Below, one piece after another: positions 7,826 through 43,673 of a DNA stretch of 64,000 bases (positions within the stretch are counted from its first letter, which is position 1; each line of letters opens with the position of its first letter). Location of the stretch: positions 142,563 through 206,562 of the forward strand of contig JACPKP010000004.1 of the NCBI GenBank assembly GCA_016186955.1, in the 5' to 3' direction. This DNA comes from Candidatus Daviesbacteria bacterium. Its GTDB lineage: Bacteria; Patescibacteriota; Microgenomatia; Daviesbacterales; UBA10151. The notes below the pieces were generated by a model, which searched no databases, was not told the origin of the DNA, and saw only the letters and a program-made list of their open reading frames with translations. The position numbers and the translations under genes were made by a program.

Positions 7826-7846
7826 TCTGCTGTTTGTTAACACACT

Positions 7847-9571: not shown

Positions 9572-9577
9572 ATTGCT

Positions 9578-10475: not shown

Positions 10476-10497
10476 AGCTGGGGATGAATGAAATTAT

Positions 10498-10522: not shown

Positions 10523-10610
10523 AGGAAGATGCACCGCTTTTTAAAGCGGTGTAGATTCACTAAAAGGATTTAACAAATCGTTAATCTCCTAGTCTAGTAC
10601 CTAAAAAATT

Positions 10611-27025: not shown

Positions 27026-27444
27026 TTGTGGCTATTATATCTTTTGTAAACTAACATGCAAACACTGATCAATGTAAAGGCTGAAAAAGAAAGAAACGGT
27101 ATGGTAACAAATCCCAACCATTCAAAAAACTTCGTGGTGCAGGAGATACCAGCAGCACAAGGGGCGGCAGATTCAGGCAACACCTGGTAGTACAAAAGGT
27201 TATGGTACAAAGCGGTCAGCATTCCGGTAATACTTAGCGGCAAGGCGTACAAATATACTTTTTTATCCTTTGTTAAAATACCTACTGCTAAAATTACCAC
27301 CAAAGGATACATAAATATCCTTTGGTACCAGCATAAGACGCAGGGCGGGAAACGGACTATCTCACTGAAAAAAAGACTGCCAAAAGTTGCGGAAAGCGCC
27401 AGCGCCCATGCAAAATATAAAGTATATTTTTTCAAAATGCCCAT
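27022..27444 (-). CDS. DsbB/BdbC-like disulfide bond formation protein
   Basis: Four TM helices. 'CVLCWYQR' is the first Cys pair and 'CAAGISC' the second periplasmic Cys pair. Confidence 0.6.
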   Translation of the reverse strand: MGILKKYTLYFAWALALSATFGSLFFSEIVRFPPCVLCWYQRIFMYPLVVILAVGILTKDKKVYLYALPLSITGMLTALYHNLLYYQVLPESAAPCAAGISCTTKFFEWLGFVTIPFLSFSAFTLISVCMLVYKRYNSHK

Positions 27445-28312
27445 AATACCGAAATTTATTATATTGCATTTGGAGCAATTTTACTATAAATTTTTATCTG
27501 TAATGCAAAAAGGAGTAACTGTTTCGGCGGTTGTACCGGCATACAATGAAGAGAAGGCGGTCGGGAAAATAGTTGACACCCTACTAGCCTGCAGCCTGAA
27601 CCAGGTTGTTTGTATCAATGACGGGTCCACAGACCAAACAGAACAAATCCTTGAAAATTTTGGGCGGCAAATTACCCTGGTAAACCATGAAAGGAACTTG
27701 GGTAAAGGTTTTGCGCTGGCTTCAGGCATAAAAGCTGCCCAAGGTCATGTTGTCATGTTTGTTGACGCAGATTTGCAAAACCTTAAAAAGAAACATATTT
27801 CCCAGCTTTTAGACACTTTTTTAACTAAAAAGTATGAGGTGGTAATTGGGGTGCGGTCTTTTGAAAAAGCAAATTATTACCTCCCCCTAAAATTAAATAT
27901 TTCCGGGGAGAGGGTATATTGGAGAGACTCCCTTTTGCCTTATCTGACCCAGATGAGAAAGATGAACTTTGGAGGGGTAGAAGTTTTCCTGAATTCTTTA
28001 TTTAAAAAAAACCAGGTCAGGAGAATTATTCTTGAAGGGTTGTACAACCCCCCAAAACACCAAAAAAGGGGATTTGAAGCAGGAATAAAGGAGTATCTGC
28101 AGGAGGGGGTTGAAATCGCCCTGGAACTTTCTAAACTTGAGCGCGCCCCTTTAGAGGATTACCTCAGGATTAAAAAAATTATGAAATTAAGGAATATTAA
28201 AGATATCAGGTCCCAGATAAACAGCATCACCAATAAATATGTCAAATCATCGCTTAAACTATACTTTAAAAAATACATGGAGGGGATACAGAAGATACTG
28301 ACTAAGATTTGA
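27437..28312 (+). CDS. GT2-family glycosyltransferase (DPM/DPG-synthase-like)
   Basis: 'VSAVVPAYNEE', 'INDGSTDQT' and 'FVDADL' (DxD) are present. The true start is probably Met at ~27503. Confidence 0.7.
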   Translation: MPIIPKFIILHLEQFYYKFLSVMQKGVTVSAVVPAYNEEKAVGKIVDTLLACSLNQVVCINDGSTDQTEQILENFGRQITLVNHERNLGKGFALASGIKAAQGHVVMFVDADLQNLKKKHISQLLDTFLTKKYEVVIGVRSFEKANYYLPLKLNISGERVYWRDSLLPYLTQMRKMNFGGVEVFLNSLFKKNQVRRIILEGLYNPPKHQKRGFEAGIKEYLQEGVEIALELSKLERAPLEDYLRIKKIMKLRNIKDIRSQINSITNKYVKSSLKLYFKKYMEGIQKILTKI

Positions 28313-28492
28313 CAGGAGACAAAATTTATGTTATTATGTGCTTCTGCCAGAACAACGGGTGCAGCTAAATTGCATTCTGTATCCGGTTTCTGGCAGAAAT
28401 ATTTTTTTGTTTTTAGCCGTCCCCCTTCGGGGGGTGAAGAAAGGAGTGCGCCTGGATCTGATGATTTAGCGCACAAATTTAATAAGCGGCGG

Positions 28493-28527
28493 GGGCAGTC
28501 CGGTTTTCCGGGCTGCCCATTCTTTTT
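28493..28527 (+). terminator. Rho-independent terminator (hairpin gggcagtccgg/ccgggctgccc + TTCTTTTT) between convergent genes
   Basis: Read directly. A second GC hairpin, cccccttcgggggg, lies at 28422-28436. Confidence 0.4.
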
Positions 28528-28939
28528 ACCCTGACGCTTTCGACAGTCCTAAAAACTCCTTATAATCCCTGATATAATCATCGGGATCATAAAGATTGGA
28601 CGCCAAAACCAGTAGAATAGTTTTCTTTTTAAAGTCATGCATTTCATGCCAGACCATTTTGTCTAAAAACAGTCCATGCTCAGGTTTGTCCAAAAAAACT
28701 GTTGCGCGTTTTTTCCCGTCATCAACTATTATTTTAATATCCGAATTCAGGCAGAATAAAACCTGTTGGGTTTTTTTATGTGCATGGAACCCCCTCGGAA
28801 ATTTAGGGTCAGCATCAAATATTGAATAAATCCTGTTTATGGGGAAGGGGATATGGTCAGGGGTTTGGGCAAACACCAGGGAACCGTCGTCTGTAATTTT
28901 TGGCAGGTAGATAAACCGCACCAGTTCATTTTCTCTCAT
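28526..28939 (-). CDS. Cupin-fold sugar 3,4-ketoisomerase-like (FdtA/WxcM-like)
   Basis: 'YSIFDADPKFPRGFHAHKKTQQVLFCL...VWHEMHDF' fits the WxcM/FdtA cupin pattern. Confidence 0.45.
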   Translation of the reverse strand: MRENELVRFIYLPKITDDGSLVFAQTPDHIPFPINRIYSIFDADPKFPRGFHAHKKTQQVLFCLNSDIKIIVDDGKKRATVFLDKPEHGLFLDKMVWHEMHDFKKKTILLVLASNLYDPDDYIRDYKEFLGLSKASG

Positions 28940-28980
28940 TTGTCTTTGTAAATATGCCAGTACTGTTGTAAAGTATCTTT

Positions 28981-29541
28981 ATGATAAATTTTTTAAAGAA
29001 TGTAATCAATCAGGCCACCGGTTTAGATTCTACATCAATTATCATAGCAGTTGGAGCAGCTACTTTTTTCTTCGGGTTTGGCGCAGGCGCGCTTTATAAT
29101 TATTACCTGATTTTGACAAACTCACCAATAGTTTCAACACTAAGAACCTCTTTAACCTTCAAATCAGCAATTTTCGGGGATGGGATAATTTTACCAATCA
29201 TTAACATGACGGCAGCATATTTCCTGATCAAAAACCGGAAATACCGGACAAAAACCATTTTAGTTTACTCATTTATATCAGGATTTGTTGTTTTAGCCTA
29301 TTTTCACATCACCCAGGCTGTCAAGGGTTTGGTCAACTGGGCGATGCCCTCACCCTGGCATTGGAACCTGTTAGGGCTTTGGCATGCAATATATATGTAC
29401 TCTGTTGCGAGTTTCATCTCCTATTTTTACTTTACCAGCATAAAGTCAGCAATAAAGGAAAAAAAAATTCCGCTTCAGCTGATACTTGTCACAATTGGAA
29501 TGATAACATTTTTTATACTACTTGATTTAGATTACCGCTGA
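28981..29541 (+). CDS. Hypothetical multi-pass membrane protein
   Basis: It has 5-6 hydrophobic helices and no motif. Confidence 0.35.
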   Translation: MINFLKNVINQATGLDSTSIIIAVGAATFFFGFGAGALYNYYLILTNSPIVSTLRTSLTFKSAIFGDGIILPIINMTAAYFLIKNRKYRTKTILVYSFISGFVVLAYFHITQAVKGLVNWAMPSPWHWNLLGLWHAIYMYSVASFISYFYFTSIKSAIKEKKIPLQLILVTIGMITFFILLDLDYR

Positions 29542-29559
29542 TTGATCCTTACTGGCACT

Positions 29560-29619
29560 CACCTGGAAGGAGTCCATTCGGCCACCTTCCAGGTGGGCCC
29601 TGACTCCTGGAAGGTGGTG
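29560..29619 (+). promoter_or_regulatory. Three-part element with mutually exclusive hairpins: A cacctggaagg, B caccttccaggtg, C cctggaaggtggtg
   Basis: B can pair with either A or C (11-bp and 9-bp stems). It sits just upstream of a TTGACA-18-TATAAT promoter. Confidence 0.3.
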
Positions 29620-29633
29620 TCATATGTGATAGG

Positions 29634-29663
29634 TTGACATGAACCCCATAGTCATACTATAAT
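29634..29663 (+). promoter_or_regulatory. Sigma70-like promoter TTGACA-18-TATAAT
   Basis: Read directly. It lies upstream of the GC-rich small gene. Confidence 0.35.
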
Positions 29664-29767
29664 CCCAACTTAGTGTCTGGAAAGTGACAAGGTCATAAGA
29701 TTGCTTGGCTTTTGTTGTTTTTCCAGCAATAGGCAGGGCATATTCAGTTGTGGAAAAGGAGGTTGTC

Positions 29768-29968
29768 GTGGCAAAGCGGAAGCGACAGCTGGTTGAGGCG
29801 GAGCTCAGGAAAGCTGACCTCCAGATCTCAGCCCAGTCCGGGTATCATTATGAAACCGGCCTGGGATACGGATCCCCGCTCGAAGAGTGGGATGAATCCT
29901 CATACTATGAGGAGGGCGAGGAACCAAACTGGGGCAGAGCCCTGTCCCAGTTGCAACGCAACAACTGA
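29768..29968 (+). CDS. Small (66 aa) basic-N/acidic-C protein encoded in an anomalously GC-rich (~57%) patch
   Basis: A perfect RBS AAGGAGG sits 5 nt before GTG. The ORF is in-frame with ORF-track entry 29705..29968. A terminator follows. Confidence 0.4.
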   Translation: MAKRKRQLVEAELRKADLQISAQSGYHYETGLGYGSPLEEWDESSYYEEGEEPNWGRALSQLQRNN

Positions 29969-29977
29969 ATATGCCAG

Positions 29978-30010
29978 AAGGCGGCCTCCGGGCCGCCTTT
30001 CCTATTCTAT
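29978..30010 (+). terminator. Hairpin aaggcggcc-tccg-ggccgcctt + T-rich tail (probably bidirectional)
   Basis: Read directly. It abuts the sortase stop on the opposite strand. Confidence 0.45.
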
Positions 30011-30592
30011 AAGTTCACCAAAGACCAAAAGCCTTTTTAGGCTGGTGCCGGGTGGAGTACAGGTCATCAGAGTAAGAATTTTTTCATCTGTGTTGCTTTT
30101 TAGGTACTGCACATCATTAGGATTAACTATTTTTTTGCCATTGACAACATATTCATATTTTTCCCCTTTAAAGTAGATAAAAACTTTATCCCCATAATTT
30201 AACTTATCCAGTAGATAAAATATTGAGTTGTACCTTTGTGCTTCATAAAAATTTACTGAGGAGTGTGAGAATAAAAACATATTTCCTGGTTGGCCGGGAT
30301 AGGCTGTACCTTTAGCATGGGCTATGCCCTTTGCCAGCACCTGTTGGTATTCCCACTCCTTCCATGGGTCAACATTGGCGATTATGCGTGAATTAGCCCC
30401 TATTTTGGGCACCACAATGCCAAATTGCCGGTCTATAGGTTTAACCTCCTTCTTAGACTGTTTAACTAAGGCGCTTGTTTGGTAACCAAGCTCAGCTAAA
30501 AGCATGGGGTAAAAGGTAAGCCCGACAATAGAAAATGAGAAAAAAATCAGAATAATACCTAATGATGTTAAAAACCCGGGATATTTAAACAC
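30002..30592 (-). CDS. Sortase (class A/E-like transpeptidase)
   Basis: N-terminal TM. Catalytic 'LTLMTCTPPGT' (TLxTC) with upstream His. Length 196 aa. Confidence 0.8.
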   Translation of the reverse strand: MFKYPGFLTSLGIILIFFSFSIVGLTFYPMLLAELGYQTSALVKQSKKEVKPIDRQFGIVVPKIGANSRIIANVDPWKEWEYQQVLAKGIAHAKGTAYPGQPGNMFLFSHSSVNFYEAQRYNSIFYLLDKLNYGDKVFIYFKGEKYEYVVNGKKIVNPNDVQYLKSNTDEKILTLMTCTPPGTSLKRLLVFGELIE

Positions 30593-30596
30593 AATT

Positions 30597-31163
30597 TTAG
30601 ATGCGTTTTTTTGACCTTAACCCTTTGAAAAGTATTACCAAACCGGAAACCAGTGAAGCCAAAGCAATAATCAACCAAATAGATTCTGCACCTGTTTTTG
30701 GCAGGCTGATTGATGCCCCCAAAATCTCTCCTCCAGTACCTCCGCCACTGCAGCTGTAATTGCTGTTTTTGGCCAGATATGGAGCATTTTGCAGCCCCCA
30801 AAGACTTCCGTCAGGTATCAGAACCCAATTGTCTTTTTTTAAAACTTCAATTTGACCCTGGGTTAAGGATGAAGCTTTCCACCAGTTTGTCTGAATACCT
30901 GCTCCGTCTATAGAACAAAAACATTGCTGCAGTGTATTGTCTGAAAGTGTATAGACCTTGTCAGACCCTTTAAATTCAGTGCTATTTCCCGCTATACCAT
31001 GGGTTCCGCCGGGGTAGTCTGCTTTTATTGTTCCCTCCGGATTTGAACATGAAGGGAAATGAGGGGTATCAACAGCTTTTACCTGCATTGGGGTAGCGGT
31101 AAATAAAATTAATGAAACTGATAGTGATACCAAAAGTAACTTTGATAAATTCAAATTTATCAT
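30597..31163 (-). CDS. LPxTG cell-wall-anchored surface protein (sortase substrate)
   Basis: Signal peptide. C-terminal 'LPKTG' + hydrophobic helix + 'RSKKRI' tail. Gly/Ser-rich linker. Confidence 0.8.
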   Translation of the reverse strand: MINLNLSKLLLVSLSVSLILFTATPMQVKAVDTPHFPSCSNPEGTIKADYPGGTHGIAGNSTEFKGSDKVYTLSDNTLQQCFCSIDGAGIQTNWWKASSLTQGQIEVLKKDNWVLIPDGSLWGLQNAPYLAKNSNYSCSGGGTGGEILGASISLPKTGAESIWLIIALASLVSGLVILFKGLRSKKRI

Positions 31164-31205
31164 ATCGCGCGGATTATAGCAGGCCTATAATGAAATTGCA
31201 AGGGG

Positions 31206-32192
31206 TTAAATGAATTTTCTGAAAGTGTAAAAGGATGTAATTGTTTTAACAGCTTTTCTGGGGTTTCCATTTTTATTCCAAAGCTGGGTTGAACCACCTA
31301 CACTAACCCAATAGTTTATTCCGATAACATTAGGATTGTTTTTAAGATTTTCGAGAACGCTTGAAATCCAATCTGATTGTTGTTCTTCATTCATCCGGCC
31401 GTTAATATCAGGTATTGGTACACCAAACTCACCCAAAACTACTTTTCCTCCGCTTGCCACTGCAATTTTATTGATATCGGAAATCAGTTTTTCCGGTTTG
31501 CCAACATAATGGTCGATCACTACAATTCCGCCCAATGATTTAGTTGTATCTTTATCCATAACTAAAGTTGCTACATCATAATTCATGGAATAAAAACCGC
31601 TGTTTAAATCCTTACCGATTTTTTTAAATGATTTTTGGGAGATTTGATATTCATCAATCAAAAATTTTCTATAATCCTCAACACCACCTGTTTGTCTGGG
31701 ATCACCCGAACCGCCATTTTCGCACTCAGGACAGGGAGTAAAAATATCGCCGTTTTCGAAAAAGTAAGGATTTTTTAATATAAAATCTTCTGTTTTTTTT
31801 AGATGGGTATTTCTGTCAATTTTATCATAGCCAAACCATTTTTCCCAACCGGAAAAATTCCCTCTGAACCAAACTTTGAGTTTATATTTTCTGGCAGCCT
31901 GAACCCACCTTTTTAGCATAGGGTTGAATTCATCGTCATACGGGGTTGAGATGGCGATATGGCTGGCGCCGGTTTTAGCAATATCTCCAACCTGGGTATT
32001 AATAGTCAGGTCAAAGCTCTCATCAGCTAACTTCTCCCGGCTTAAATCCCTGGAGTATTTAACAGTATCTATTGAGCGAAACTGCCAGTAGGGAACTGCA
32101 GCGGTTTTCGGTCCTGTCCCCGGAGCAATCGCCTTATAAAAGAAAAGCAGTCCTACCAGTATCATTAATATTCCCAGCAAAGTTTTATTCAT
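31206..32192 (-). CDS. Secreted TIM-barrel glycoside-hydrolase-like protein (GH5/GH113-like)
   Basis: Signal/TM. 'CPECENGG' (candidate acid/base NE/EN), 'LGEFGVP' (candidate nucleophile) and 'INYW' are present. Confidence 0.35.
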   Translation of the reverse strand: MNKTLLGILMILVGLLFFYKAIAPGTGPKTAAVPYWQFRSIDTVKYSRDLSREKLADESFDLTINTQVGDIAKTGASHIAISTPYDDEFNPMLKRWVQAARKYKLKVWFRGNFSGWEKWFGYDKIDRNTHLKKTEDFILKNPYFFENGDIFTPCPECENGGSGDPRQTGGVEDYRKFLIDEYQISQKSFKKIGKDLNSGFYSMNYDVATLVMDKDTTKSLGGIVVIDHYVGKPEKLISDINKIAVASGGKVVLGEFGVPIPDINGRMNEEQQSDWISSVLENLKNNPNVIGINYWVSVGGSTQLWNKNGNPRKAVKTITSFYTFRKFI

Positions 32193-33817
32193 TATTTTTG
32201 TTTTCCCAAAATTGGCCTGGTAATAAGATTGCTTACATATTGTTCCTGCAGCTTGTATACGTCCGCAAACGGATACTTAGCTACAAGATCATAATGATCA
32301 AGCTCCTTGGTTTTGCTGACTGCTTTATAAACCATATCTTTGTCATCGTAGGTACGCATCACAATCCATCTGGCCCAATGGGAAGGATTTGTAGTGGCAA
32401 GATCCCAATAAGCGCCCGTTCCTTCATGAATAAACTTGCTCATAGGTAATCCTGAGGAAAAGACGATCGCGTCATGAGATGCAACAGATATCAAAACGAA
32501 CCCATCTTTATCTTTGGCATTTTGGTTCAACCATCCGCTAACCTCGGAAACATTTTTTTGGCTTGATCCGACTCTGGCATCATCTATGGTCACCGCATCC
32601 AAACTGTTAAATTGAAAAAATGTTACAAATAATAAAAGACCGATCAATACAAGCCTTAAGTCTTTTAATCTGTCAATTAAAAATCCTACGAATATTGCAG
32701 CAGGCACAACCATCAGCGCTCCGTAACGCACATTAAACCAGGTTTCCCCTGAAATTCCCTGAATAAATAAAACAGAATGGCCAAAATACAGGGCAGCAAT
32801 ATTAAAAATTAGTGGAGTAGTTAACATTGAAGCTGCAATCTTTACGTTTAAGGCAATTTTTTTATCGATCCATAAAATTACCGCGCCAATCAAACCCAAA
32901 ACAGCAATAAAAGCGCCTACGTTATATACTAATGCATACAAATAGGCGCTTGCAGAATAAAGGATGTTTCCTTTGGTAACCAGATTTCCTGCCTGTTCCA
33001 ACTGAGCTTGCTGAACGCGCGCAGAGTAAGGACCATACGCAAAATATAGCGCATCTTTAAAAATCAGTTGGTTCCATAAAAACCATAGGAGTATCCCAAA
33101 CCCCGCCAGGGTTGCAAACAATATCATCAATCCTTCCGCTTTCTGGTATTTTTCTTTTAGGTTTTGGGTAATTTTACCTTGACTCTTTATAAAAATATTT
33201 ACCATAACCGCCGAGGCGATCAATAAAAATAGAAACCATCCGTCATAACGGGTAAGACTTGCCATCATCACCCAAAAAGCGGATTTGATTAAATCAATAA
33301 TTTTTTCCTCTTTTTCCCAAACGATAAAGCTGTAAATTGCCGCAGTGGTTGTGGCGATCAAAAGAGGTTCTGTCATTGCAGTAGACTGGAGATAAAGCAT
33401 GTTTAGGTTGGATGCAAACAGCCCTACTGCCACTAGCCTTCCCAATATCCCAATACCCAGTTTTTTTAAAATAAGATAGATAAAAATTCCTGTTGCCACA
33501 AAAGAAACCATTGAAGTTAAAGCTCCGGCTAAACCTGAGTGCCATAAAAAATCATTCCAGACAAAGGGGATCATTAAAACATGGGGGAGGGGAAGCCAGA
33601 CACTTCCAAGCTGAGCGATACCGGGCTTTAACCCTTCAACCACCCTCCTGCCAATATCCAAATGAGAACGCGCATCATTGTACGAAAGCCCCAAGCCGTT
33701 AATATAAAAATATGTAAAACTAACCAAGGCTATTAATGATAGAAGGATAGGTAAACCCAACATGGGGTCTTTAAAAATTATTCTAATTACATTCAGTTTA
33801 ATAATTGTATTTTTCAT
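32192..33817 (-). CDS. GT-C fold membrane glycosyltransferase (PMT/ArnT-like, GT39/GT83-like)
   Basis: More than 10 TM helices. The first loop has 'DARSHLDIGRR' (DE-like motif). Confidence 0.45.
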   Translation of the reverse strand: MKNTIIKLNVIRIIFKDPMLGLPILLSLIALVSFTYFYINGLGLSYNDARSHLDIGRRVVEGLKPGIAQLGSVWLPLPHVLMIPFVWNDFLWHSGLAGALTSMVSFVATGIFIYLILKKLGIGILGRLVAVGLFASNLNMLYLQSTAMTEPLLIATTTAAIYSFIVWEKEEKIIDLIKSAFWVMMASLTRYDGWFLFLLIASAVMVNIFIKSQGKITQNLKEKYQKAEGLMILFATLAGFGILLWFLWNQLIFKDALYFAYGPYSARVQQAQLEQAGNLVTKGNILYSASAYLYALVYNVGAFIAVLGLIGAVILWIDKKIALNVKIAASMLTTPLIFNIAALYFGHSVLFIQGISGETWFNVRYGALMVVPAAIFVGFLIDRLKDLRLVLIGLLLFVTFFQFNSLDAVTIDDARVGSSQKNVSEVSGWLNQNAKDKDGFVLISVASHDAIVFSSGLPMSKFIHEGTGAYWDLATTNPSHWARWIVMRTYDDKDMVYKAVSKTKELDHYDLVAKYPFADVYKLQEQYVSNLITRPILGKQK

Positions 33818-33824
33818 AATAATT

Positions 33825-35345
33825 TTATTGCCTGTTTTTAGAAATTGAAAAGACTATCAGAGAGGCTATAACAAAACAACTTGAGACGCCTGTGACGATG
33901 GCAAGAAATACCGTACTAGTTATTTTATCGAATAGGTATACATTATATATAAGCGAACCGGAGAAATTTTTTTGGATTAATTCAAGATTGTATCTGAAAT
34001 CTGAATGAATTGGGGTGAGTAAGTGGACTGCTTGAATAGCCGGCGGGATATGTACGGTTGTAACAGCGCTCAAGGTATTAACAAAAATTCCATATAGTGC
34101 AACCAAGCATAATAAAATCAAAAAAAATATATTTTTTTTAAGTCTATCCAATAGAATACCCAACCCAGAACAAAGCAAGGCAAATGATGGAATCAAATAT
34201 CTTGGTCCAAAAGCCCAACCGCCCCAAGGATCGTTAAACATAGAATACAATAAAACGTTTATCCCTATCATAGTTAGCATCAAAGACGCTAAACTACTGT
34301 CTTTTTTGCTCCGAATTATCCAAAACAAGCTTATAAAACCGATTAATACAACCGGACTATAATAAATTAGCCCACGGTCTCTGCTAAAAAGTAAAACGCC
34401 TAATCCATTGAGTTGTCTGCGTGATTCGAATTGATGAAAATCCTTAGACCTTGTGACTGTTTCATTTTCAATTTTGTGGGATTGGCTTAGTTGAGGATCC
34501 TCAGGAAAGATTGCTCTACCCTGAGTCTGTGCAAGTTTAAAATAGTTACCGGTTACCTGATAATTATACCAAAGAAATAACCCTGTAATGGGTACTAGAC
34601 CTATAAATATACCAAGCATACTTATACGCTTGAGTGACTGCTTTAATTGAAAAAATACCTCACTTTTTTCTATAAAAATATTTTTGTAAATTACAACAAT
34701 TAATATTGGGATAGACAGTATAATATTAGGAATATCAACTATCGCAGCAGCGCTCAATAAAAACCCAAAAATTATATTACTTAAAATCCCCCTTTTTTGT
34801 AATGTGTTAAGCAGCATTAAAATAATCAGAGTGACGCTAACCTGATGCTGTGTAAAAGTAACCGCATACGGGTATGCATTTGTAGCAAATAAAAATAAAA
34901 ACCCACTGAGTATGCTGGAATAAAAACCCGCCCCTAATTTTGAAGCTAATTTTGCAACCAGAAAGATATTCAAAAGAGATAATAATGTTATAGAAAGGTA
35001 AGTTGTTAATTGCTGGAGATTGAATATAGAGCCTAAATAATAAAAAGGCACTCCGATCAACGAAACACCGGGTGTAAAAATTGATAGATATTTACCATTA
35101 ATCTTGGAAATATCAGGCGATGAAAAAGCAGCCAAAGATTCATTAAGAAATAAACTATTGGATTTGACAATCGACTCAGTTAGGGCAAACCTCGAGGAAC
35201 TATTTGTACCTTCAAAAGGGCTGCCTATACCGGTATCCCTGTTTGTTTGAAAGTAAATTGGGATACCCGAACGTCCCCTGACCGCAAAACCTAATAAAAA
35301 TAAACTTATTATTAAGGTGGTTACCAGAAAAAAAGCATTTTTCAT
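33825..35345 (-). CDS. GT-C fold membrane glycosyltransferase (PMT/ArnT-like), second copy
   Basis: Multi-TM with the same architecture. It lies adjacent to 32192-33817. Confidence 0.45.
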   Translation of the reverse strand: MKNAFFLVTTLIISLFLLGFAVRGRSGIPIYFQTNRDTGIGSPFEGTNSSSRFALTESIVKSNSLFLNESLAAFSSPDISKINGKYLSIFTPGVSLIGVPFYYLGSIFNLQQLTTYLSITLLSLLNIFLVAKLASKLGAGFYSSILSGFLFLFATNAYPYAVTFTQHQVSVTLIILMLLNTLQKRGILSNIIFGFLLSAAAIVDIPNIILSIPILIVVIYKNIFIEKSEVFFQLKQSLKRISMLGIFIGLVPITGLFLWYNYQVTGNYFKLAQTQGRAIFPEDPQLSQSHKIENETVTRSKDFHQFESRRQLNGLGVLLFSRDRGLIYYSPVVLIGFISLFWIIRSKKDSSLASLMLTMIGINVLLYSMFNDPWGGWAFGPRYLIPSFALLCSGLGILLDRLKKNIFFLILLCLVALYGIFVNTLSAVTTVHIPPAIQAVHLLTPIHSDFRYNLELIQKNFSGSLIYNVYLFDKITSTVFLAIVTGVSSCFVIASLIVFSISKNRQ

Positions 35346-35348
35346 ATT

Positions 35349-36581: not shown

Positions 36582-36600
36582 ATAAATACCTTTCTTGATG

Positions 36601-37551
36601 TTAATGAACCTTTTTTTGTATTAAAAAGTCTAAATAATCGTTTTGCTTCCCTTTATCGTAATAATGAGATAAATTTAGAGAGATATATAAAGCTAGTGGC
36701 TGATTAAACTCTTTCGTTATTTTTTGAATCCGGCTATAAACATCCCGGGAATCGGTTTTAATCAATTTTTGCGTAAAATCATAATCTTTAAGAGTTAGCA
36801 CCATATATTCACAATCTATAATTGTAGCAGAGCTTTTACTAACCAGAATATTTTCGGCAGATAAATCCCTATGCGCTAAATATAAGGATTTTTGGTTTGA
36901 TAAAACAAAACCCTTGAGTATTAAAAGCGCTGATTTAATTATTGTCCAGGAATATTTCGGGTTAGATATAACGCCAAGAAATATTAAAAAAGGCAAGGAG
37001 AGAACCATAAAAGATAAACTTCTGGTTGGAAAACCATTCAGTTGTAATGGTTTTGAAACCTTTTCAAAGGCTTCAAGTATCCCTTTAATATAAGTTACCT
37101 GAAAGGGGATAGAGAAGCATTTTAACTGTTTTCCCGGGATATATTTGAAAACAACTGATAATAACCTCTTCTCTTCAATTATTTCTAAAACCTCAGTAAC
37201 TTCAAGTTTTTTACCACAAATTTTAATTGCAGTTTTGGAAAATTCTTTAGACAGCAATTTACTGGAAATAATTTCATTGAGTAAAGAATAATAATGAAAA
37301 TCCCTAAAGTGGCCCTGCCAGGTTTTTATAAATTTTTTATTACCTTGATTGTCCGAGTAAATGCCTACATAAAAATTACTGAAGCCATTTGATTTTTTTA
37401 TTGTTCTTATCAGTCTATACTTACCGATATTCGTCAGTTCAAGGTTATACTTATTAAATAACTTATTGATACCAAAAAAAGAAATTATCATACCCACCAG
37501 TAAGTTTAGGGTTGATGCTTTTTTGTAATCAGTTATGCTCTTACTTTTCAT
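36601..37551 (-). CDS. Protein-kinase-like fold protein (Kdo/WaaP / eukaryotic-like kinase), N-terminal TM
   Basis: Catalytic loop 'HRDLSAENILV' followed by 'IIDCEY' (DFG-like region). Confidence 0.5.
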   Translation of the reverse strand: MKSKSITDYKKASTLNLLVGMIISFFGINKLFNKYNLELTNIGKYRLIRTIKKSNGFSNFYVGIYSDNQGNKKFIKTWQGHFRDFHYYSLLNEIISSKLLSKEFSKTAIKICGKKLEVTEVLEIIEEKRLLSVVFKYIPGKQLKCFSIPFQVTYIKGILEAFEKVSKPLQLNGFPTRSLSFMVLSLPFLIFLGVISNPKYSWTIIKSALLILKGFVLSNQKSLYLAHRDLSAENILVSKSSATIIDCEYMVLTLKDYDFTQKLIKTDSRDVYSRIQKITKEFNQPLALYISLNLSHYYDKGKQNDYLDFLIQKKVH

Positions 37552-37553
37552 AT

Positions 37554-40500
37554 TTATTCTTTTAAAAGTTTTATTAACCTATCGCTACTTTGATCCCAAC
37601 TGAATTGTTTTACCCAATCTCTTGAATTAGTTTCCAAATAAATTCTGAATTTTTTATCTTTCAAGATCCTACAAATTGCCTCTATCCATTTTTCCTGATT
37701 GTCCCAAGCCACCAATAAACCTGTATGAGGGTTTTTAACCGAATCACGAAGTCCGGGTACATCGGAAGCAATTACACAGGTACCTGCAGCATTAGCTTCT
37801 ATGATAGTGATACCCCAGCCTTCAATCCTTGAAGGTTGAACCAGAATCCATGATTTAGCTAAAAGTTCGACTTTAGTCTTTTCACTAACAACACCAATAA
37901 ACTTAATAACCTTTTGTAGATTTAAGTTTTGTACTAATTTTTCAAGGGATGACCTGCTTTCTCCCTCTCCTGCAATAGTTAATGTAACTGACGGAACTTG
38001 TTTTTTGACCTCTCCCATGACATTTATAAGTTTGTCCAATGATTTGTAAGGCTTTAGTCTGCCAAGATATAAAAGCGAGGGTGTATAGGTCTTGTTAGTA
38101 TTTAACTGGAACTTTTTCAGATCTACTCCGGGGTTGATAATAGATATCTCTTGTTTTTTACCCAATCCTAAGCTTTTAATTGCCTGTTTTGAAGACTGCG
38201 AAACCGTTATCACCTTTGAATTTCTGTAAGCTAGGGGCATCAGTTTTCCTTCCAAAAATCTTCCAATTTGTGATAGGGGGAATTTAAGCTCAGTCAAAAA
38301 TACTTCCTGATGAATGTGGTGAATCAGCAGAAATATTTTCTCTCTGGCATAAAGCGGAGTAAAAAAAGGAATTCCGTTCTCAGAATCAATTACAACATCA
38401 AAAGAATCTTTAAATCTGAAAATATAATACAAAAAAGCCCAAATATATACTGTATATGTTCCGCCTCTTCTGATAATCTGTATTCCATCTATATATTCAG
38501 CTCTCGGTAAGTTACCGTCGTTTCCGCAAAAGAGCGTTACCTGATTTCCTTGCTCCACCCATTTTTTTGCCATTTCATGCAAATAAACCTCTGCTCCTCC
38601 AGCCCATTTATGTTTTGTATCCCTCCAATTCATGATTAAAATTGATTTGTTAGATTGAAATCTATTTTTTGGTTTTGTTCTAAAAAATAACAGCCCTAAT
38701 AGGTCTTTTAGATTAGATTTAATAGGATTGTATTTTTTATGAAGGACATGCAGAAGAAAAACACAAAGAAAATTGAAAAAACCTATATAAAATACCTGGT
38801 AAGTAAAATCTTTGACACTACTATGAAATTTATTTATCAGAACCAATTCAGCTGCAAATGAAAATACTCCGCTTAAAGTAAAAATATACTTTTCTTTAGC
38901 TTGGTAAAAATGGATTATTGGACGGCTGAGGGTAAAGAATGTTATACCCAGCAAAAAAACAGGTAAATATTCTAAAATGTGTTCAGTTTTTTTACCTAAA
39001 AGTAATGGAACAAAAAGATTACCGAAAATTCCTAATAATAAAAAAGTTGTCAAGGAAACAAGGGCTGTGGAGCCAAAAATCAGCCAAAAGGTTTTGTTAC
39101 TTTTTTTTGTGGCGCCTTCATTTCTGGAAACTATAGGGATCATGAAAGGCAAAAAAAGAGCGCCCATATAATATGCAATTTTCCCAACAAGGCTTAACAA
39201 GCTATATTGACCAGCCTCAAACGGGGACAAAAAATGCTTAGCTAGAATGATATCTAAGCCCAAAAAAGATATGTTTGAAATCCCATTTAAAGCCGAAGTT
39301 GTAAAGAAAAGAAAATTAAATGAGAATTGTTTAGAGGGTAATGCGCTAGATTTAGTTTTTAATACTAAAATCCAACCTAAGATAACTTCAATTAGTAATG
39401 CAGCTGGTATTGCCAGCGCTACATAATCTGCTAAGCCTGCTTTTATCAATAAAAAAGCTAGCGTAAGTTTTACAAAAGATTCAACGATTGTTAATAATCC
39501 AATTGTCCCAAAAGATAATATTCCCTTCAGGTATCCTGCAACACTCAAGTTTAATATTCCAATTGTCCAAATCGGGGTAAAGATTAAAAAAGTTAACAAT
39601 GAGTCTGTGTGAAAATAGGATGATAGAAACGGTATAGATAACAACCATAAAAGAGTCGCTAAAGAAGCAACTAAAATTCCGTAGTGGGCAACTACATTTA
39701 AATATTTCCTGGCATTTTCTTTAGAATACCTGCCAATAATAAACGCCACTTTATGGGATACGGTTGTTGAGAAAGCATTAAGGGGTATGTATGCTATAAA
39801 CAGAAGGCTTGTAAATAAACTCAATTCCCCAAAATCCTCAACACTAAGTTTCCTTCCCAAAAATGCATTGAATATAAAGTTTGAAATGTTTGCCAAAAGG
39901 TTTGCTAAGATCAGCATTGACCCTCCGACAAAAAGATCTTTCTCAGCTATCACTCCAGGCAATTTATTTGTAAGCCATCCTTTCCATGTTGCTTTACTTC
40001 CGGAAACTGACACTTCTTCGGCTACCTCATTTTTCATTACTTCACTGATATATTTTTTAGCTTCTGTTTTTTTAAAATCCAGTCCATGCACTGTTTTTTC
40101 CCAATAGTGAGGCTTAAAAATCAACTGGAAAAGCGCCATAACTGCAGCTATCGAGGTAATCAGCCAGTAAAAGGGGATTAGGTAAACAAATTTAATGATT
40201 GTAAAATGGCCTCTTTTGGCTGCACCTATCATATAGTTATAAAAGTGCAGGAAGTTTCCAAACACTAAGGAGAACGCTGCCATATAAAAAACAGGCGCAG
40301 GGTAGAATGATTCAATAGCCGGACCAACGATTGAATAAAGCGCAAAGTAAGAGATGGTTGTTATCCAAAGTATTGGGTTAATTAAAATAAATGAAATTCT
40401 TGAGCCGATTATTAAATCAAAAATTAATGCGTGCGCTCTGTGTTTTTTTAGGAAATCCCATCTGTCCCTGGTGTGAACTAAGTAGGTTTGCATATAACCC

Positions 40501-41186
40501 TTGATCCACCTTGATCTTTGCCTGATCCAGTTACCCAAATCGCTATTTGCTTCCTCAAGCGTTGTTGAATCAATAATCGCTGTTTTATAGCCCTGCCTGA
40601 AAAGTCTTACTCCCAAATCGCAATCCTCGGTAACGTTAAATGGATCCCATCCCTCAAGCGATCTTAGTATTTCCGTTTTGAAATGATTACTGGTTCCACC
40701 CAATGGTATGGTTGTATCAATGGATTGAAACCCTATAAGTATTACGTCAAACCAAAGCGAATACTCTGCCGTAAAAAGGCGGGTTAAAAGATTTTGATGA
40801 GGATTGTAGTAATTCAGTTTTGCCTGAAGGCATACAACGCTATTTTTGGATTTTTGAAAAGCCAAATAAGCTTTTTTCAGTTGACACGGATCCGGTTGAT
40901 CTTCGGCATCATAGATGACTAAGTATTCTCCTTTGACAAAATTTAAACCAAAATTACAGGCTTTTGGTTTTGTTTTAGGAAGGGAATCAGGAACAATAGT
41001 TGTTGTTATATACTCAGGTAAATTTAAGCTTCTGACTGCATCTATTGTTTCCTGATCATCACTCTCAAGAAGAAGCTGAATATCCAACTTTTCCTTAGGC
41101 CACTCAATTTTAGAAATAGATTCTAAAAATTTTGGTAAAACTCTTGCTTCCCTATACAAAGGCACAAGTATGGAATAAACCGGCAA
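37554..41186 (-). CDS. Tri-domain fusion: processive GT2 (QxxRW) - MOP/Wzx-type polysaccharide flippase - GT4
   Basis: Residues 1-~380: 'IYDAEDQPDP', 'QRSRWIKG' and GT2 TM helices. Residues ~400-820: 12-TM Polysacc_synt-like. Residues ~830-1210: GT4 'IEGWGITIIEANAAGTCVIASDVPGL'. It is a single 1210-aa ORF. Confidence 0.7.
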   Translation of the reverse strand: MPVYSILVPLYREARVLPKFLESISKIEWPKEKLDIQLLLESDDQETIDAVRSLNLPEYITTTIVPDSLPKTKPKACNFGLNFVKGEYLVIYDAEDQPDPCQLKKAYLAFQKSKNSVVCLQAKLNYYNPHQNLLTRLFTAEYSLWFDVILIGFQSIDTTIPLGGTSNHFKTEILRSLEGWDPFNVTEDCDLGVRLFRQGYKTAIIDSTTLEEANSDLGNWIRQRSRWIKGYMQTYLVHTRDRWDFLKKHRAHALIFDLIIGSRISFILINPILWITTISYFALYSIVGPAIESFYPAPVFYMAAFSLVFGNFLHFYNYMIGAAKRGHFTIIKFVYLIPFYWLITSIAAVMALFQLIFKPHYWEKTVHGLDFKKTEAKKYISEVMKNEVAEEVSVSGSKATWKGWLTNKLPGVIAEKDLFVGGSMLILANLLANISNFIFNAFLGRKLSVEDFGELSLFTSLLFIAYIPLNAFSTTVSHKVAFIIGRYSKENARKYLNVVAHYGILVASLATLLWLLSIPFLSSYFHTDSLLTFLIFTPIWTIGILNLSVAGYLKGILSFGTIGLLTIVESFVKLTLAFLLIKAGLADYVALAIPAALLIEVILGWILVLKTKSSALPSKQFSFNFLFFTTSALNGISNISFLGLDIILAKHFLSPFEAGQYSLLSLVGKIAYYMGALFLPFMIPIVSRNEGATKKSNKTFWLIFGSTALVSLTTFLLLGIFGNLFVPLLLGKKTEHILEYLPVFLLGITFFTLSRPIIHFYQAKEKYIFTLSGVFSFAAELVLINKFHSSVKDFTYQVFYIGFFNFLCVFLLHVLHKKYNPIKSNLKDLLGLLFFRTKPKNRFQSNKSILIMNWRDTKHKWAGGAEVYLHEMAKKWVEQGNQVTLFCGNDGNLPRAEYIDGIQIIRRGGTYTVYIWAFLYYIFRFKDSFDVVIDSENGIPFFTPLYAREKIFLLIHHIHQEVFLTELKFPLSQIGRFLEGKLMPLAYRNSKVITVSQSSKQAIKSLGLGKKQEISIINPGVDLKKFQLNTNKTYTPSLLYLGRLKPYKSLDKLINVMGEVKKQVPSVTLTIAGEGESRSSLEKLVQNLNLQKVIKFIGVVSEKTKVELLAKSWILVQPSRIEGWGITIIEANAAGTCVIASDVPGLRDSVKNPHTGLLVAWDNQEKWIEAICRILKDKKFRIYLETNSRDWVKQFSWDQSSDRLIKLLKE

Positions 41187-41232
41187 CTTGGAATCTTCAA
41201 GCGCAAATATTTCATCATCCTTTACTGAGATT

Positions 41233-42243
41233 TCAGGAGGAGCGTAAAAACTTTTGGTAATTAAAAAAAAGACTGAATAAAACGTCTATAAAATAAACAA
41301 CGCTGAGGATTCCAATTAATACTTGCAGCGCCAGCAGCCAGTTTAAAGCAAAGCCTATGAGTAGAATTCCGATTAATAAAACAAAGAAAAGCGCCTGATT
41401 AGCGCTGAAGGTTTTAAATGCGGAAGATTTATGGTTTAAAGTGGTATGTGTTATATATCTTTTGCTCTTGTAAGCCAAACCGGCGCCAACCATAGTTGTG
41501 ACAGCTTGAGGAAGAATTTTATATATCTTTCTTTTGGAAAATTTATGCTTTAAAGAATTCGTACCGATCTCAACTATTGTTTTGAAAACATTAATGTTTG
41601 AGGCCCCGTTTAATCTTTTGTCAAATTTGATACCAATAGTTCCAATTGAATACCCGAGTTCCCTGGCGGTTAAAAGAAGGAGCAGATCCAATGTCCAGGG
41701 AGAAAGAGTATTTTGGTCAACATTTTCAATCACCTCTTTTTTAAAAAGCTTTAGGCCTGATTGAACATCACAATCCAACCCAAACAAGAAATTGCCAAAT
41801 ATATTCTTAAATCCTGCATTTAAGAATTTTCTAAAAGGCTTATCCTGATAATCAATCCTGTTGGCAACAACCACCCCATGCTCTGAAAGTTTTGCAAACA
41901 TTGCAGGTATGACTTCTGGAGGATACTGCAAATCACCGTCGATCATAGCAAGGTTGTCACCTACTGCAAATTGGGCGCCCTCGATGATTGAATATGCTTT
42001 CCCGGCCTTACCTTTTTTTGTAACAAGTTTAACCGGATAAAACCGCTGAAGGTTTAATATAGTTTCAGTTGTTTGATCTTCAGACCGGTCATCTACAAAA
42101 ATAATTGTGTAATCTATACCTTTTGAAGACATGGAGGAATCAATCCTTTTTACCAAAGGCGTTATATTTTCTTCCTCGTTTTTGACAGGAATGATAATAT
42201 TTAAGTAATTCATAACTGTATTAAAAAGGCATGATCCTAGCAA
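41233..42243 (-). CDS. GT2 polyprenol-phosphate sugar synthase (DPM1/GtrB-like) with C-terminal TM helices
   Basis: 'IIIPVKNEEENI', 'FVDDRSEDQT' and 'IDGDLQYPPE' are present. Two C-terminal hydrophobic helices follow. Confidence 0.7.
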   Translation of the reverse strand: MLGSCLFNTVMNYLNIIIPVKNEEENITPLVKRIDSSMSSKGIDYTIIFVDDRSEDQTTETILNLQRFYPVKLVTKKGKAGKAYSIIEGAQFAVGDNLAMIDGDLQYPPEVIPAMFAKLSEHGVVVANRIDYQDKPFRKFLNAGFKNIFGNFLFGLDCDVQSGLKLFKKEVIENVDQNTLSPWTLDLLLLLTARELGYSIGTIGIKFDKRLNGASNINVFKTIVEIGTNSLKHKFSKRKIYKILPQAVTTMVGAGLAYKSKRYITHTTLNHKSSAFKTFSANQALFFVLLIGILLIGFALNWLLALQVLIGILSVVYFIDVLFSLFFNYQKFLRSS

Positions 42244-42481
42244 AAGCTAGTTTTTGGGCAGAGGCCTTATTTACAAAGGCCTATAATAACACAAGGGGAT
42301 TGAAAAGTCCAGCCTATAGATATCTTATCTTCGCAGAACCAAACAACCGGTGTTTAAAAAATGCTTTTAATTGTTACCCCATTTTAAACCATCCGTCAAG
42401 CAACCTGTTAATAGCTGTAATTTTTATACATAGCTTTTTGAGAAAAAAAGTGTATTATTATCCAAATTGGAGGTGATTTAT

Positions 42482-42934
42482 ATGGCAGAAAAAGAACCAA
42501 AATTTGCACAAGGGGATAAAGCCCAGGTGAAGAAGGTTGAGGTAACAGATGACGGCTCAAATGATGGGATTAAAAAAATTATAGTCACAAGAAGGGACCC
42601 TGCAGCAAGATGGACCGCAACAGGTTGTGCGGTTTTAACAGCTGTTTTTGTCATTACCGATGTTTTGATAAATTACAGCTTAAGACAACAGAGTCCTATC
42701 GGTGAACCTGAGCTGGCAATTTACCGGGAGGACTTAAAAAAAGAGGCGGAGGCAATGAAAAGCCTGAAGTTGCAACTTGAAGATGATATGATTAAAACCA
42801 GGCTGGCAGGTTATGCAGTTTTACAAGTAGTTTCAGAGGGGAAAATGAGCTATCAGGAATATTCAGATCAGATAGACACCTTATACAAAAAATCCAAAGA
42901 CCTGGCTTCTGCAACAAAGCCTTTAAAAAAATAG
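42482..42934 (+). CDS. Hypothetical single-TM protein
   Basis: RBS GGAGGTGA 7 nt upstream of the ATG at 42482. One TM helix (AVLTAVFVITDVLI). Confidence 0.35.
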   Translation: MAEKEPKFAQGDKAQVKKVEVTDDGSNDGIKKIIVTRRDPAARWTATGCAVLTAVFVITDVLINYSLRQQSPIGEPELAIYREDLKKEAEAMKSLKLQLEDDMIKTRLAGYAVLQVVSEGKMSYQEYSDQIDTLYKKSKDLASATKPLKK

Positions 42935-42956
42935 CTGCGGGTAGTATAATTTTGGG

Positions 42957-43673
42957 ATGGATTTTGAGGTTCAGGGAAAAACTATTCTTTTTGTATGCGC
43001 ACATCCCGATGATCTGGAGTTTTGTTTCGGGGGAACTGTTGCAAAATGGGCGGGCGAGGGTGCATCAATTTATTATCTTATATTAACTGACGGAAGCAAA
43101 GGCTGCGAAGATCCACAACTGGATCCAACTGAACTAATAAAAACCAGACAGAGAGAACAGGATGAGGCAGCCAAAATTCTAGGTGTTAAAAAGGTGATAT
43201 TTTTAGACCATGTCGACGGCGAACTTGAAAATAACCCAAAACTTAGAAAACAGATAGTCAGGGTCATCCGCAAGATAAAACCGGATATAGTTGTAACAAT
43301 GGATCCTACATTTGTCTATGACGAGAAATATGGCATCATCAACCATCCTGACCACCGGGTCGCCGGCCAGACCACCTTGGACTCTGTCTACCCTTTTGCC
43401 AGAAACCACCGTGCTTTTCCGGAGCTTTTGGATGAAGGGTTAACACCCCACCATGTCAGTGATATCCTTCTTTTCAACAGCCTAAGGATGAATTTTTTTG
43501 TAGATATAGAAGATACTCTTGCAAAAAAGCTTAAAGCGCTAAACTGTCATAAAAGCCAGTTTAAAGATCCACAAGCGGTTGAAAAGCTGGTAATACTTGT
43601 TGCCCAAAACGCGGGTAAGAAAGCAAAGCTCAAATATGCAGAAGGCTTAACCTGGGTCCATATTAATTTTTAG
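42957..43673 (+). CDS. PIG-L/LmbE-family N-acetylglucosaminyl deacetylase (BshB/MshB-like)
   Basis: 'LFVCAHPDDLEFCFGG' and 'HPDHR' zinc-binding signatures are present. Confidence 0.75.
   Translation: MDFEVQGKTILFVCAHPDDLEFCFGGTVAKWAGEGASIYYLILTDGSKGCEDPQLDPTELIKTRQREQDEAAKILGVKKVIFLDHVDGELENNPKLRKQIVRVIRKIKPDIVVTMDPTFVYDEKYGIINHPDHRVAGQTTLDSVYPFARNHRAFPELLDEGLTPHHVSDILLFNSLRMNFFVDIEDTLAKKLKALNCHKSQFKDPQAVEKLVILVAQNAGKKAKLKYAEGLTWVHINF

Follow-up and report, generated by a model that had tools for sequence, protein, structure and literature searches.

Here, we describe a putative surface-glycosylation operon of Candidatus Daviesbacteria bacterium, located in a 64,000-nucleotide stretch of DNA (contig JACPKP010000004.1 of GenBank assembly GCA_016186955.1, positions 142,563 to 206,562) that is called the window throughout and has a GC content of about 38%. 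On the minus strand, from position 42243 down to position 30002, the window carries nine co-directional genes separated by intergenic gaps of at most 46 nucleotides. In gene order, these encode a DPMS/GtrB-like glycosyltransferase of family 2 (GT2), a large protein combining GT2, MOP-like and family 4 glycosyltransferase (GT4) parts, a kinase-like protein, a GT4 enzyme, two putative GT-C glycosyltransferases (here GT-C2 and GT-C1), a 328-residue extracytoplasmic protein, a protein with an LPKTG sorting signal, and a sortase. The nine genes share one strand, the gaps are small and a hairpin lies at the 3' end; therefore, the sortase substrate and the sortase are the final two genes of a glycosyltransferase transcription unit. 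The hairpin is likely a bidirectional terminator that marks the end of the operon. All open reading frames (ORFs) named in a first-pass annotation of this DNA were present where it had placed them, and its broad domain classes held up in searches of Pfam, NCBIfam and PDB. No description of this operon was found in the literature. Gene content, folds, motifs, the sorting signal, operon structure and conserved synteny are reported below as they were observed. The features of the operon are as follows:

41233 to 42243, minus strand: DPMS/GtrB/ArnC/PgfS-like GT2 of 336 residues with a C-terminal transmembrane region (Pfam GT2, E 1.9e-23)
41187 to 41285, minus strand: junction of a split four-module gene, with a T8 homopolymer at 41262-41269
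37554 to 41186, minus strand: membrane protein of 1210 residues with a GT2, a MOP/MatE-like polytopic region and a C-terminal GT4 (Pfam)
36601 to 37551, minus strand: kinase-like protein of the choline kinase/APH kind (Pfam Choline_kinase, E 4.5e-4, below cut-off), part of the variable region
35349 to 36581, minus strand: GT4 glycosyltransferase (Pfam Glycos_transf_1, E 4e-31), part of the variable region
33825 to 35345, minus strand: GT-C2, a polytopic membrane protein of 506 residues (LA_3751/LA_3752 model, and PMT_2 in orthologues)
32192 to 33817, minus strand: GT-C1, a GT-C-fold glycosyltransferase of 541 residues (AlphaFold model and Foldseek)
31206 to 32192, minus strand: extracytoplasmic protein of 328 residues with an N-terminal membrane anchor, from a conserved uncharacterised family (Pfam Glyco_hydro_cc, E 0.008)
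30597 to 31163, minus strand: LPKTG sortase substrate (TIGR01167, 19.3 bits against a cut-off of 15.9)
30002 to 30592, minus strand: membrane-anchored sortase, the last gene of the operon (Pfam Sortase, E 2.5e-25; 89.1 bits against 26.6)
29977 to 30000, no strand assigned: GC-rich, terminator-like hairpin directly 3' of the sortase stop codon, with 10 pairs of which 7 are GC

The arrangement of these genes is widely conserved. One genome per species was scanned, which gave at least 400 loci with GT-C1 relatives; the best 80 were analysed, with gene families assigned using the window proteins and iterated hidden Markov models. All 80 belong to Microgenomates, including Daviesbacteria, Curtissbacteria, Woesebacteria, Gottesmanbacteria, Levybacteria, Chisholmbacteria, Shapirobacteria and Amesbacteria. 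GT-C2 lies directly upstream of GT-C1 in 71 of 71 loci, and the next gene after GT-C1 belongs to the 328-residue family in 61 of 62. A gene of the LPKTG family is present in the block at 46 of 62 loci, adjoining the 328-residue family gene in 43, and is directly followed by the sortase in 40 of the 46. As a control, in the 3.5 kb past the sortase the commonest gene family is common to only 4 of 35 loci. The link between the sortase/substrate pair and the glycosylation genes is real and far beyond chance. The first-pass annotation had drawn attention to this co-location, which is borne out by the shared operon, by its conservation in 80 species genomes and by its sharp end past the sortase. An outward search from three substrate homologues led to three further loci (L085, L086 and L087). 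L087 has the same block arrangement as the window, while in the rearranged L086 the substrate and sortase genes lie directly upstream of the large multi-module gene. Because the block is conserved across the whole Microgenomates group, the operon probably builds a core surface glycoconjugate. Many of the contigs carrying the Microgenomates block (loci L005-L084) are publicly titled 'uncultured Gammaproteobacteria', 'Bathyarchaeia' or 'Eisenbacteria', and these off-group titles probably reflect mislabelled or mis-binned metagenome-assembled genomes.

The sortase carries the catalytic motif TLMTC (TLxTC type), as read from its sequence, and matches 43 sortases in PDB, of which the nearest are 4d70 and class C sortases, while no NCBIfam class model reaches its cut-off. 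Its substrate consists of a signal peptide, a domain of about 105 residues, a 15-residue linker, the LPKTG motif, a 23-residue hydrophobic helix and a KKRI tail. The sortase is predicted to be dedicated to the adjacent LPKTG substrate, and a scan of the 64-kb window found no second protein with a sorting signal. In 107 homologues the sorting motif is retained, for the most part as LAxTG, LPKTG being the minority form. Family alignment revealed 32 invariant positions in the domain, including four Cys, HG, IQTNWWK and WGL. A profile search of 1.84 billion representative proteins returned only 363 clusters of this family, almost all of the same architecture; rare variants have tandem copies of the domain, fn3 or SpaA-like stalk domains, or a fused sortase. 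In two such cases (P0322 and L044:12794-14119) the substrate domain and the sortase share one ORF, and these fusions may be genuine or may derive from a lost stop codon. AlphaFold 2 (AF2) modelled the domain (residues 31-140; 30744-31073 on the minus strand) with a predicted local distance difference test score (pLDDT) of about 95, and neither a fold nor a sequence match was found in PDB, the best Foldseek hits being type III secretion chaperones at E 0.19. A two-copy relative of the domain has a weak Pfam TY-Chap3 match (E 0.0012).

Linkers in the substrate family are variable, with a median length of 27 residues and a composition of 24% Gly, 16% Ser and 10% Thr, and some contain long poly-Ser runs. 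The linker of the window protein is SGGGTGGEILGASIS, with 4 Ser/Thr among its 15 residues. The protein had been described as Gly/Ser/Thr-rich, which fits this linker and not the protein overall, as Ser and Thr amount to 18% of the mature part; checking it for Ser/Thr-rich acceptor stretches accordingly turned up this one acceptor-like linker only. The family has neither a conserved N-X-S/T sequon nor a conserved WxxW C-mannosylation motif. In two loci (L003:12742-13638 and L014:4564-5514, both plus strand) the slot after the 328-residue family gene holds a non-homologous LAxTG protein of about 300 residues, with a long Pro/Ser/Thr-rich linker (DPSPSPSPTPSPTPGPSTQPSPTS...) and a VLG...LAxTG tail resembling that of the usual substrate family; such a linker is typical of O-glycosylation-type stalks. 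A sortase-assembled pilus was considered and rejected, given that the family lacks a pilin motif and an Ig/CnaB fold and that its nearly invariant Lys is Arg in some members. With regard to the four invariant Cys of the substrate, a DsbA-like and DsbB-like gene pair was observed at 26381-27444 (minus strand), 3 kb off the operon. This pair has no homologue within 10 kb of the block in the 80 loci, and lies outside the conserved block.

GT-C1 is the most conserved protein of the operon, with 58-79% identity across Microgenomates and presence in at least 400 species genomes; the window copy shows 100% identity to a protein recorded for Candidatus Daviesbacteria. Its match to PMT is sub-threshold (17.3 bits against a cut-off of 22.7 for Pfam PF02366), and its family has no Pfam or NCBIfam model. 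The AF2 model (pLDDT 75) matched GT-C structures in Foldseek with probability 1.0, including STT3 (E 1e-5), PglB (1e-3) and ArnT (1.6e-3, template modelling (TM) score 0.45), as well as AftD, Pmt4 and ALG9; TM-scores against oligosaccharyltransferases of the STT3/PglB type were 0.4-0.47. An invariant YNDARSH motif, with D48 as the invariant acidic residue, lies in the first outer loop of the protein, and a C-terminal alpha/beta domain spans about residues 435-541. There is no WWDxG motif, only YWD at residue 470, and no STT3 Pfam match. Among orthologues, PMT_2 is matched by 2 of 39. A 706-residue homologue (P0080) was considered as a fusion with another operon protein, which was ruled out because its extra part is a second, duplicated C-terminal domain.

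GT-C2 is more divergent, with only 30-45% identity across lineages. It has no Pfam match itself and resembles the Leptospira LA_3751/LA_3752 family (NCBIfam, E 2.5e-14, below cut-off); 10 of 34 orthologues match PMT_2, and a remote similarity to GT-C1 was detected with hhalign (E 0.0024). From these similarities GT-C2 is probably a GT-C glycosyltransferase as well, with a predicted GT-C fold. Neither the single sequences nor the profiles of the two proteins found a GT-C chain in PDB at E <= 10. The two thus represent GT-C-type enzymes of uncharacterised families without Pfam or NCBIfam coverage, which cluster with neither PMT nor the lipid-A/arabinan transferases. The first-pass annotation had called them PMT/ArnT-like GT-C enzymes. 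The GT-C fold stands, for GT-C1 by its model, while both remain below PMT thresholds and lack solved relatives at the sequence level. The accompanying comparison with the actinobacterial Ppm1/Pmt recipe for protein O-mannosylation was not sustained, as the PMT match is sub-threshold and the GT-C1 fold is at least as similar to STT3, PglB and ArnT as to PMT.

Two GT-C-glycosidase fusions were observed in L085. At 5269-7950 (plus strand) a GT-C1 orthologue (41% identity, E 1e-128) carries a true glycoside hydrolase family 5 (GH5) domain of the cellulase family in the same protein; in the second fusion, at 9125-11770 (minus strand), a PMT/PMT_2 GT-C is joined to a GH8 domain, with a CesA-like GT2 beside it. 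In these genomes, GT-C-glycosidase fusions appear to recur. In L085, the GH5 domain fused to GT-C1 occupies the place of the 328-residue family gene; homology between the 328-residue protein and this domain was examined and was not detectable (BLASTP E 0.03; hhalign probability 1.5%). The Glyco_hydro_cc match of the 328-residue protein scores 16.1 bits, short of the cut-off of 21, and is shared by 4 of 34 family members, and E156/E158, DHY and GEFG motifs are invariant in the family. Profile searches of the family against PDB found no glycosidase, and a further profile search gave only 'hypothetical' proteins, some with a C-terminal CarboxypepD_reg domain. On these motifs and matches, the assignment of the protein as a clan GH-A-like glycosidase is weak.

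On the donor side, the 336-residue GT2 has its nearest solved relatives in the Pyrococcus dolichol-phosphate mannose synthase (5mlz, E 1e-21), ArnC and GtrB. It combines the related catalytic domain and the C-terminal hydrophobic anchor region of a polyprenyl-phosphate sugar synthase, and misses every NCBIfam equivalog cut-off, its best models being PgfS (65.9 against 500 bits) and ArnC. The 1210-residue protein encoded next contains Glyco_trans_2_3 (E 4e-23) and Glycos_transf_1 (E 1.8e-39) domains in Pfam, and between them a MatE match of 27.3 bits against a cut-off of 24.9 that spans residues 425-557 only; this MOP-like module matches no Wzx or MurJ model. In the GT2 module of this protein, DAED, TED and QRSRW are invariant in 14 sequences and make up the processive-synthase motif set (D, D, TED, QxxRW), which is considered a signature of processive beta-glycan synthases of the CesA/PgaC/NodC type; the module also matches the NCBIfam CelA and PgaC models below cut-off. 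In 13 orthologues (loci L016, L042, L051, L053, L061, L065, L079 and others) the two proteins form a single polypeptide of about 1550 residues with the 336-residue GT2 as its N-terminal module. This fusion of a lipid-phosphate-sugar synthase-like GT2, a processive-type GT2, a MOP/MatE-like region and a GT4 is conserved across Microgenomates, and we know of no described counterpart. In the window, the downstream frame is open back to position 41285 and encodes LITKSFYAPPENL..., matching the orthologue linker L(I/V)LKSLxxPPE... Because the downstream frame still encodes this conserved linker, the split at the T8 homopolymer (41262-41269) likely reflects a 1-nucleotide indel that probably arose in assembly or through very recent mutation.

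The stretch from the large gene to GT-C2 varies in gene content among genomes and includes GT2s, GT4s, methyltransferases, acetyltransferases, deacetylases, a kinase, an aminotransferase and FdtA. Such a strain-variable region is what loci for surface glycans of variable structure typically show. The two window genes in this region differ in their distribution: homologues of the kinase-like protein occur in the variable region of many loci, some of them matching APH, and a close homologue of the GT4 (35349-36581) is found at the same position in 1 of 80 loci. Pathway genes were looked for in the operon and in the five annotated related loci (L001, L003, L085, L086 and L087), and no phosphoglycosyl transferase, Wzy, chain-length regulator, ABC exporter, LCP ligase (LytR_cpsA_psr domain) or teichoic-acid gene was found; the operon also lacks an epimerase domain in Pfam. 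The first-pass annotation had argued for a glycosylated surface protein rather than lipopolysaccharide or capsule synthesis. The lack of the first four of these components agrees with it in that classical capsule and O-antigen routes are not indicated. An exclusion of polysaccharide synthesis as such is not supported in view of the processive-type GT2, the MOP-like module, the GT4, the variable region and the GT-C1-GH5 fusion in one relative, and these polymer-type components point to an oligo- or polysaccharide and not to a single O-mannose.

Several characterised systems resemble parts of this operon. The Pgf operon of Streptococcus mutans (PgfS, PgfM1, PgfE and PgfM2) has one GT-A and two GT-C enzymes; the glycosylation of its targets, the LPXTG adhesins Cnm and WapA, takes place outside the cell (PMC12041528). 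It shares with the window a GT-A synthase and two GT-C enzymes that lie beside or act on a sortase substrate, and PgfS is the top NCBIfam match of the 336-residue GT2, although far below the equivalog cut-off. The window operon differs in lacking a PgfE-type epimerase, in having GT-C families without a Pfam model and in the addition of a processive GT2, a MOP module, a GT4, a variable region, the 328-residue partner and a dedicated sortase. In the actinobacterial Ppm1/Pmt system a polyprenyl-phosphate-sugar synthase likewise feeds a GT-C enzyme, which modifies Ser/Thr-rich stretches of secreted proteins; however, this is one GT39 enzyme with a clear PMT signature, in contrast to the sub-threshold PMT match, two unrelated GT-C families and polymer-type enzymes found here. 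In Actinomyces oris, gspA adjoins the gene of a transferase that loads a glycopolymer on GspA before sortase anchoring (PMC6381275), and the GspA-LcpA-SrtA system thus has in common with the window a small sortase substrate gene beside a glycan-loading enzyme gene. The oxidative folding of GspA needs a disulfide system (PMC6381275), which may be compared with the four invariant Cys and the DsbA/DsbB pair 3 kb away in the window. The transferase in A. oris is an LCP phosphotransferase using a pyrophosphate-lipid donor, whereas the window has no LCP protein and would have GT-C enzymes in that role.

The CsbB/GtcA/YfhO and GacI/GacK/GacL systems consist of a GT2 lipid-phosphate-sugar synthase, a flippase and a GT-C enzyme acting across the membrane (PMC8035078), a set that recurs in the window operon as a GT2 synthase, a flippase-like module and GT-C enzymes. 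They decorate lipoteichoic acid (LTA), wall teichoic acid (WTA) or rhamnan from separate recognisable pathways, none of which is found at the window locus, and unlike there, a single polypeptide of the window's family holds both the synthase and the MOP-type flippase-like module. Finally, STT3, AglB and PglB, with their Agl and Pgl pathways, come closest to GT-C1 in structure (Foldseek E 1e-5 to 1e-3), including a C-terminal soluble domain, and use a lipid-linked glycan made by GT2 and GT4 enzymes with a MOP flippase. They differ from GT-C1 in the WWDxG motif and STT3 Pfam domain that it lacks, in its TM-scores of 0.4-0.47 and in the missing sequon of the substrate family. By its genes, the system would work like known extracytoplasmic glycosylation by GT-A, flippase and GT-C components, yet it falls outside the definitions of PMT, PgfS, STT3 and LCP systems.

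Based on these observations, we tentatively favour, at somewhat less than even confidence, the interpretation that a lipid-carrier-dependent glycan is attached outside the membrane to the LAxTG protein, and this protein is afterwards anchored to the wall by the sortase. The identity of the sugar, the acceptor and the order of the steps are what we infer here. At the cytoplasmic face, the DPMS/GtrB-like GT2 would load a sugar on polyprenyl phosphate, and the glycan would be built by the processive-type GT2 together with the GT4 modules and the tailoring enzymes of the strain-variable region. The MOP-like module of the same polypeptide would carry the lipid-linked sugars across the membrane, where the two GT-C enzymes, helped by the 328-residue extracytoplasmic protein, would use the lipid-linked donors. 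The acceptor would most likely be the LAxTG/LPKTG protein of the operon, at its Gly/Ser/Thr stalk or possibly at its conserved domain, and the adjacent sortase would cut LPKT|G and join the protein to peptidoglycan. The product could plausibly, with the same reserve, be a wall-anchored glycoprotein or proteoglycan.

Glycosylation of the protein is favoured by the operonic and conserved linkage, which withstands rearrangement in L086, by the swap in L003 and L014, where an unrelated LAxTG protein shares only the Ser/Thr-rich stalk and the anchor, and, by analogy, by the Pgf (PMC12041528) and GspA-LcpA-SrtA (PMC6381275) precedents. The Gly, Ser and Thr content of the family linkers, with poly-Ser runs in some, and the substrate-sortase fusions (P0322 and L044) were also counted in its favour. 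A number of points weigh against this predicted glycosylation. GT-C2, GT-C1 and the 328-residue family gene are kept without a nearby LAxTG gene in 14 of 62 loci, and therefore the GT-C enzymes may have another, universal acceptor. The window linker offers just four Ser/Thr in 15 residues, and neither an N-glycosylation sequon nor WxxW is conserved in the substrate family. Furthermore, the strongly conserved head, sometimes present in tandem copies or mounted on stalks of the fn3 or SpaA-like kind, has the look of a functional module for display and not of a passive glycan carrier, and the processive GT2, the MOP module and the L085 GH5 fusion would equally fit a free or wall-linked polysaccharide.

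The last point leads to the best surviving alternative, which is that the operon's product is a glycopolymer, either associated with the wall or anchored in lipid (a secondary wall polysaccharide or a lipoglycan), which the GT-C enzymes would extend or decorate as GacL and YfhO do. The LAxTG protein would then be an accessory and not the acceptor, for example a lectin-like protein binding, organising or processing the polymer. We regard this as possible and on the whole rather unlikely. It would account for the invariant D, D, TED and QRSRW residues together with MOP-like and GT4 modules in one polypeptide with a lipid-phosphate-sugar synthase, for a strain-variable tailoring region as is typical of surface polysaccharide loci, and for the L085 GT-C1-GH5 fusion with its neighbouring PMT_2-GH8 fusion beside a CesA-like GT2. 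The 14 of 62 loci in which the GT-C pair and the 328-residue family gene stand without a nearby LAxTG gene also fit, and the highly conserved, aromatic-rich head (NWWK, WGL), sometimes repeated or on stalk domains, could be glycan-binding. In addition, multi-component transmembrane glycosylation of LTA, WTA and rhamnan provides a known model (PMC8035078). However, the operon and the five annotated loci contain no teichoic-acid gene, LCP ligase, phosphoglycosyl transferase, Wzy or ABC exporter, the glycosidase assignment of the 328-residue protein is weak, and a non-homologous LAxTG protein sharing only a Ser/Thr-rich stalk and an anchor is hard to square with a specific glycan-binding head.

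It is improbable that the operon serves general O-glycosylation of many Ser/Thr-rich disordered extracytoplasmic proteins, as the streptococcal GtrB/PgtC2 and Pgf systems do, with the LAxTG protein as one target among others. The combination of GT-A and GT-C enzymes, the streptococcal precedent (PMC12041528) and the very high conservation of GT-C1, near-universal in Microgenomates and independent of an adjacent substrate, speak for such a role. It leaves unexplained, however, the tight conserved pairing with one substrate and its sortase, as well as the processive GT2, the GT4, the variable region and the 328-residue partner, and a scan of the 64-kb window, a very small sample, revealed no other convincing Ser/Thr-rich secreted protein. 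Equally improbable is the absence of any functional link, with the sortase and substrate as a housekeeping envelope module beside a glycan locus, since the near-ubiquity of sortase in Microgenomates (PMC6744442), the long co-directional gene strings of candidate phyla radiation (CPR) genomes and the 14 of 62 loci without the pair are set against an adjacency kept at 74-87% though GT-C2 is only 30-45% identical, against next downstream genes common to at most 4 of 35 loci and against a linkage that survives the L086 rearrangement.

Further sugar-related genes flank the operon:

42957 to 43673, plus strand: PIG-L family de-N-acetylase (Pfam PIG-L, E 2.4e-31)
28526 to 28939, minus strand: FdtA/WxcM-like sugar-nucleotide 3,4-ketoisomerase outside the operon (Pfam FdtA, E 6.6e-42)
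27437 to 28312, plus strand: soluble GT2 (Pfam GT2, E 1.4e-25)

The first is a probable accessory gene, as L001 has a PIG-L domain within its variable region and L051 and L079 have homologues close to the block. The FdtA gene is a probable accessory gene for sugar tailoring, with homologues inside the variable region of L011, L055 and L082. The GT2 at 27437-28312 is on the opposite strand and gave generic GT2 matches only in related loci, and its membership in the system is uncertain. About 8 kb off the operon, at 20062-21850 (minus strand), an Acyl_transf_3 membrane acyltransferase gene overlaps a GDSL/SGNH gene, and the two look like a split OafA-type carbohydrate O-acetyltransferase. Beyond the glycan genes, the neighbours are housekeeping genes, such as carAB, a murA-like gene, purF and dxr.

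Promoter and terminator scans gave no enrichment over shuffled sequences, and the only noteworthy elements were the hairpin after the sortase and one promoter-like site ahead of the substrate gene. This site (31173-31201, minus strand; TTGCAA-17-TATAAT with an upstream TG) lies in the 42-nucleotide gap ahead of the LPKTG gene and could provide the substrate and sortase with a transcription start of their own. On the plus strand of region 29634-30000, a perfect TTGACA-18-TATAAT promoter (29634-29663) is followed by an AAGGAGG ribosome-binding site, and a GTG-started, GC-rich ORF of 66 codons (29768-29968) lies between this promoter and the hairpin; the region has no Rfam match and no homologue among 87 related loci.

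Patescibacteria, or CPR bacteria, make up a large share of bacterial diversity, and their envelopes are almost unknown biochemically. The presence of this operon in at least 400 species-level Microgenomates genomes, with GT-C1 at 58-79% identity, suggests a core envelope function in a group where, according to Méheust et al., sortase is near-ubiquitous and many of the enriched families are hypothetical membrane proteins (PMC6744442). The operon offers several handles for studying such envelopes, including a defined candidate glycoprotein with its sortase, two GT-C families outside Pfam and NCBIfam, a small surface domain that is confidently modelled and matches no known fold, and a natural fusion of a lipid-phosphate-sugar synthase with a MOP-type module that bears on the flipping of lipid-monophosphate sugars. 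In a wider form, which we consider doubtful at present, Microgenomates would fix their main surface glycan to peptidoglycan via a protein adaptor, with GT-C1, a novel and very highly conserved GT-C family, transferring a lipid-linked glycan of strain-variable make-up to a dedicated LAxTG protein of novel fold, the sortase replacing LCP-type ligation and the enzyme of about 1550 residues supplying and flipping the donors. If true, the protein adaptor would be a novel route for linking surface glycans to the wall and would likely act as a determinant of the interactions that these episymbiont-like bacteria have with a host or phage.

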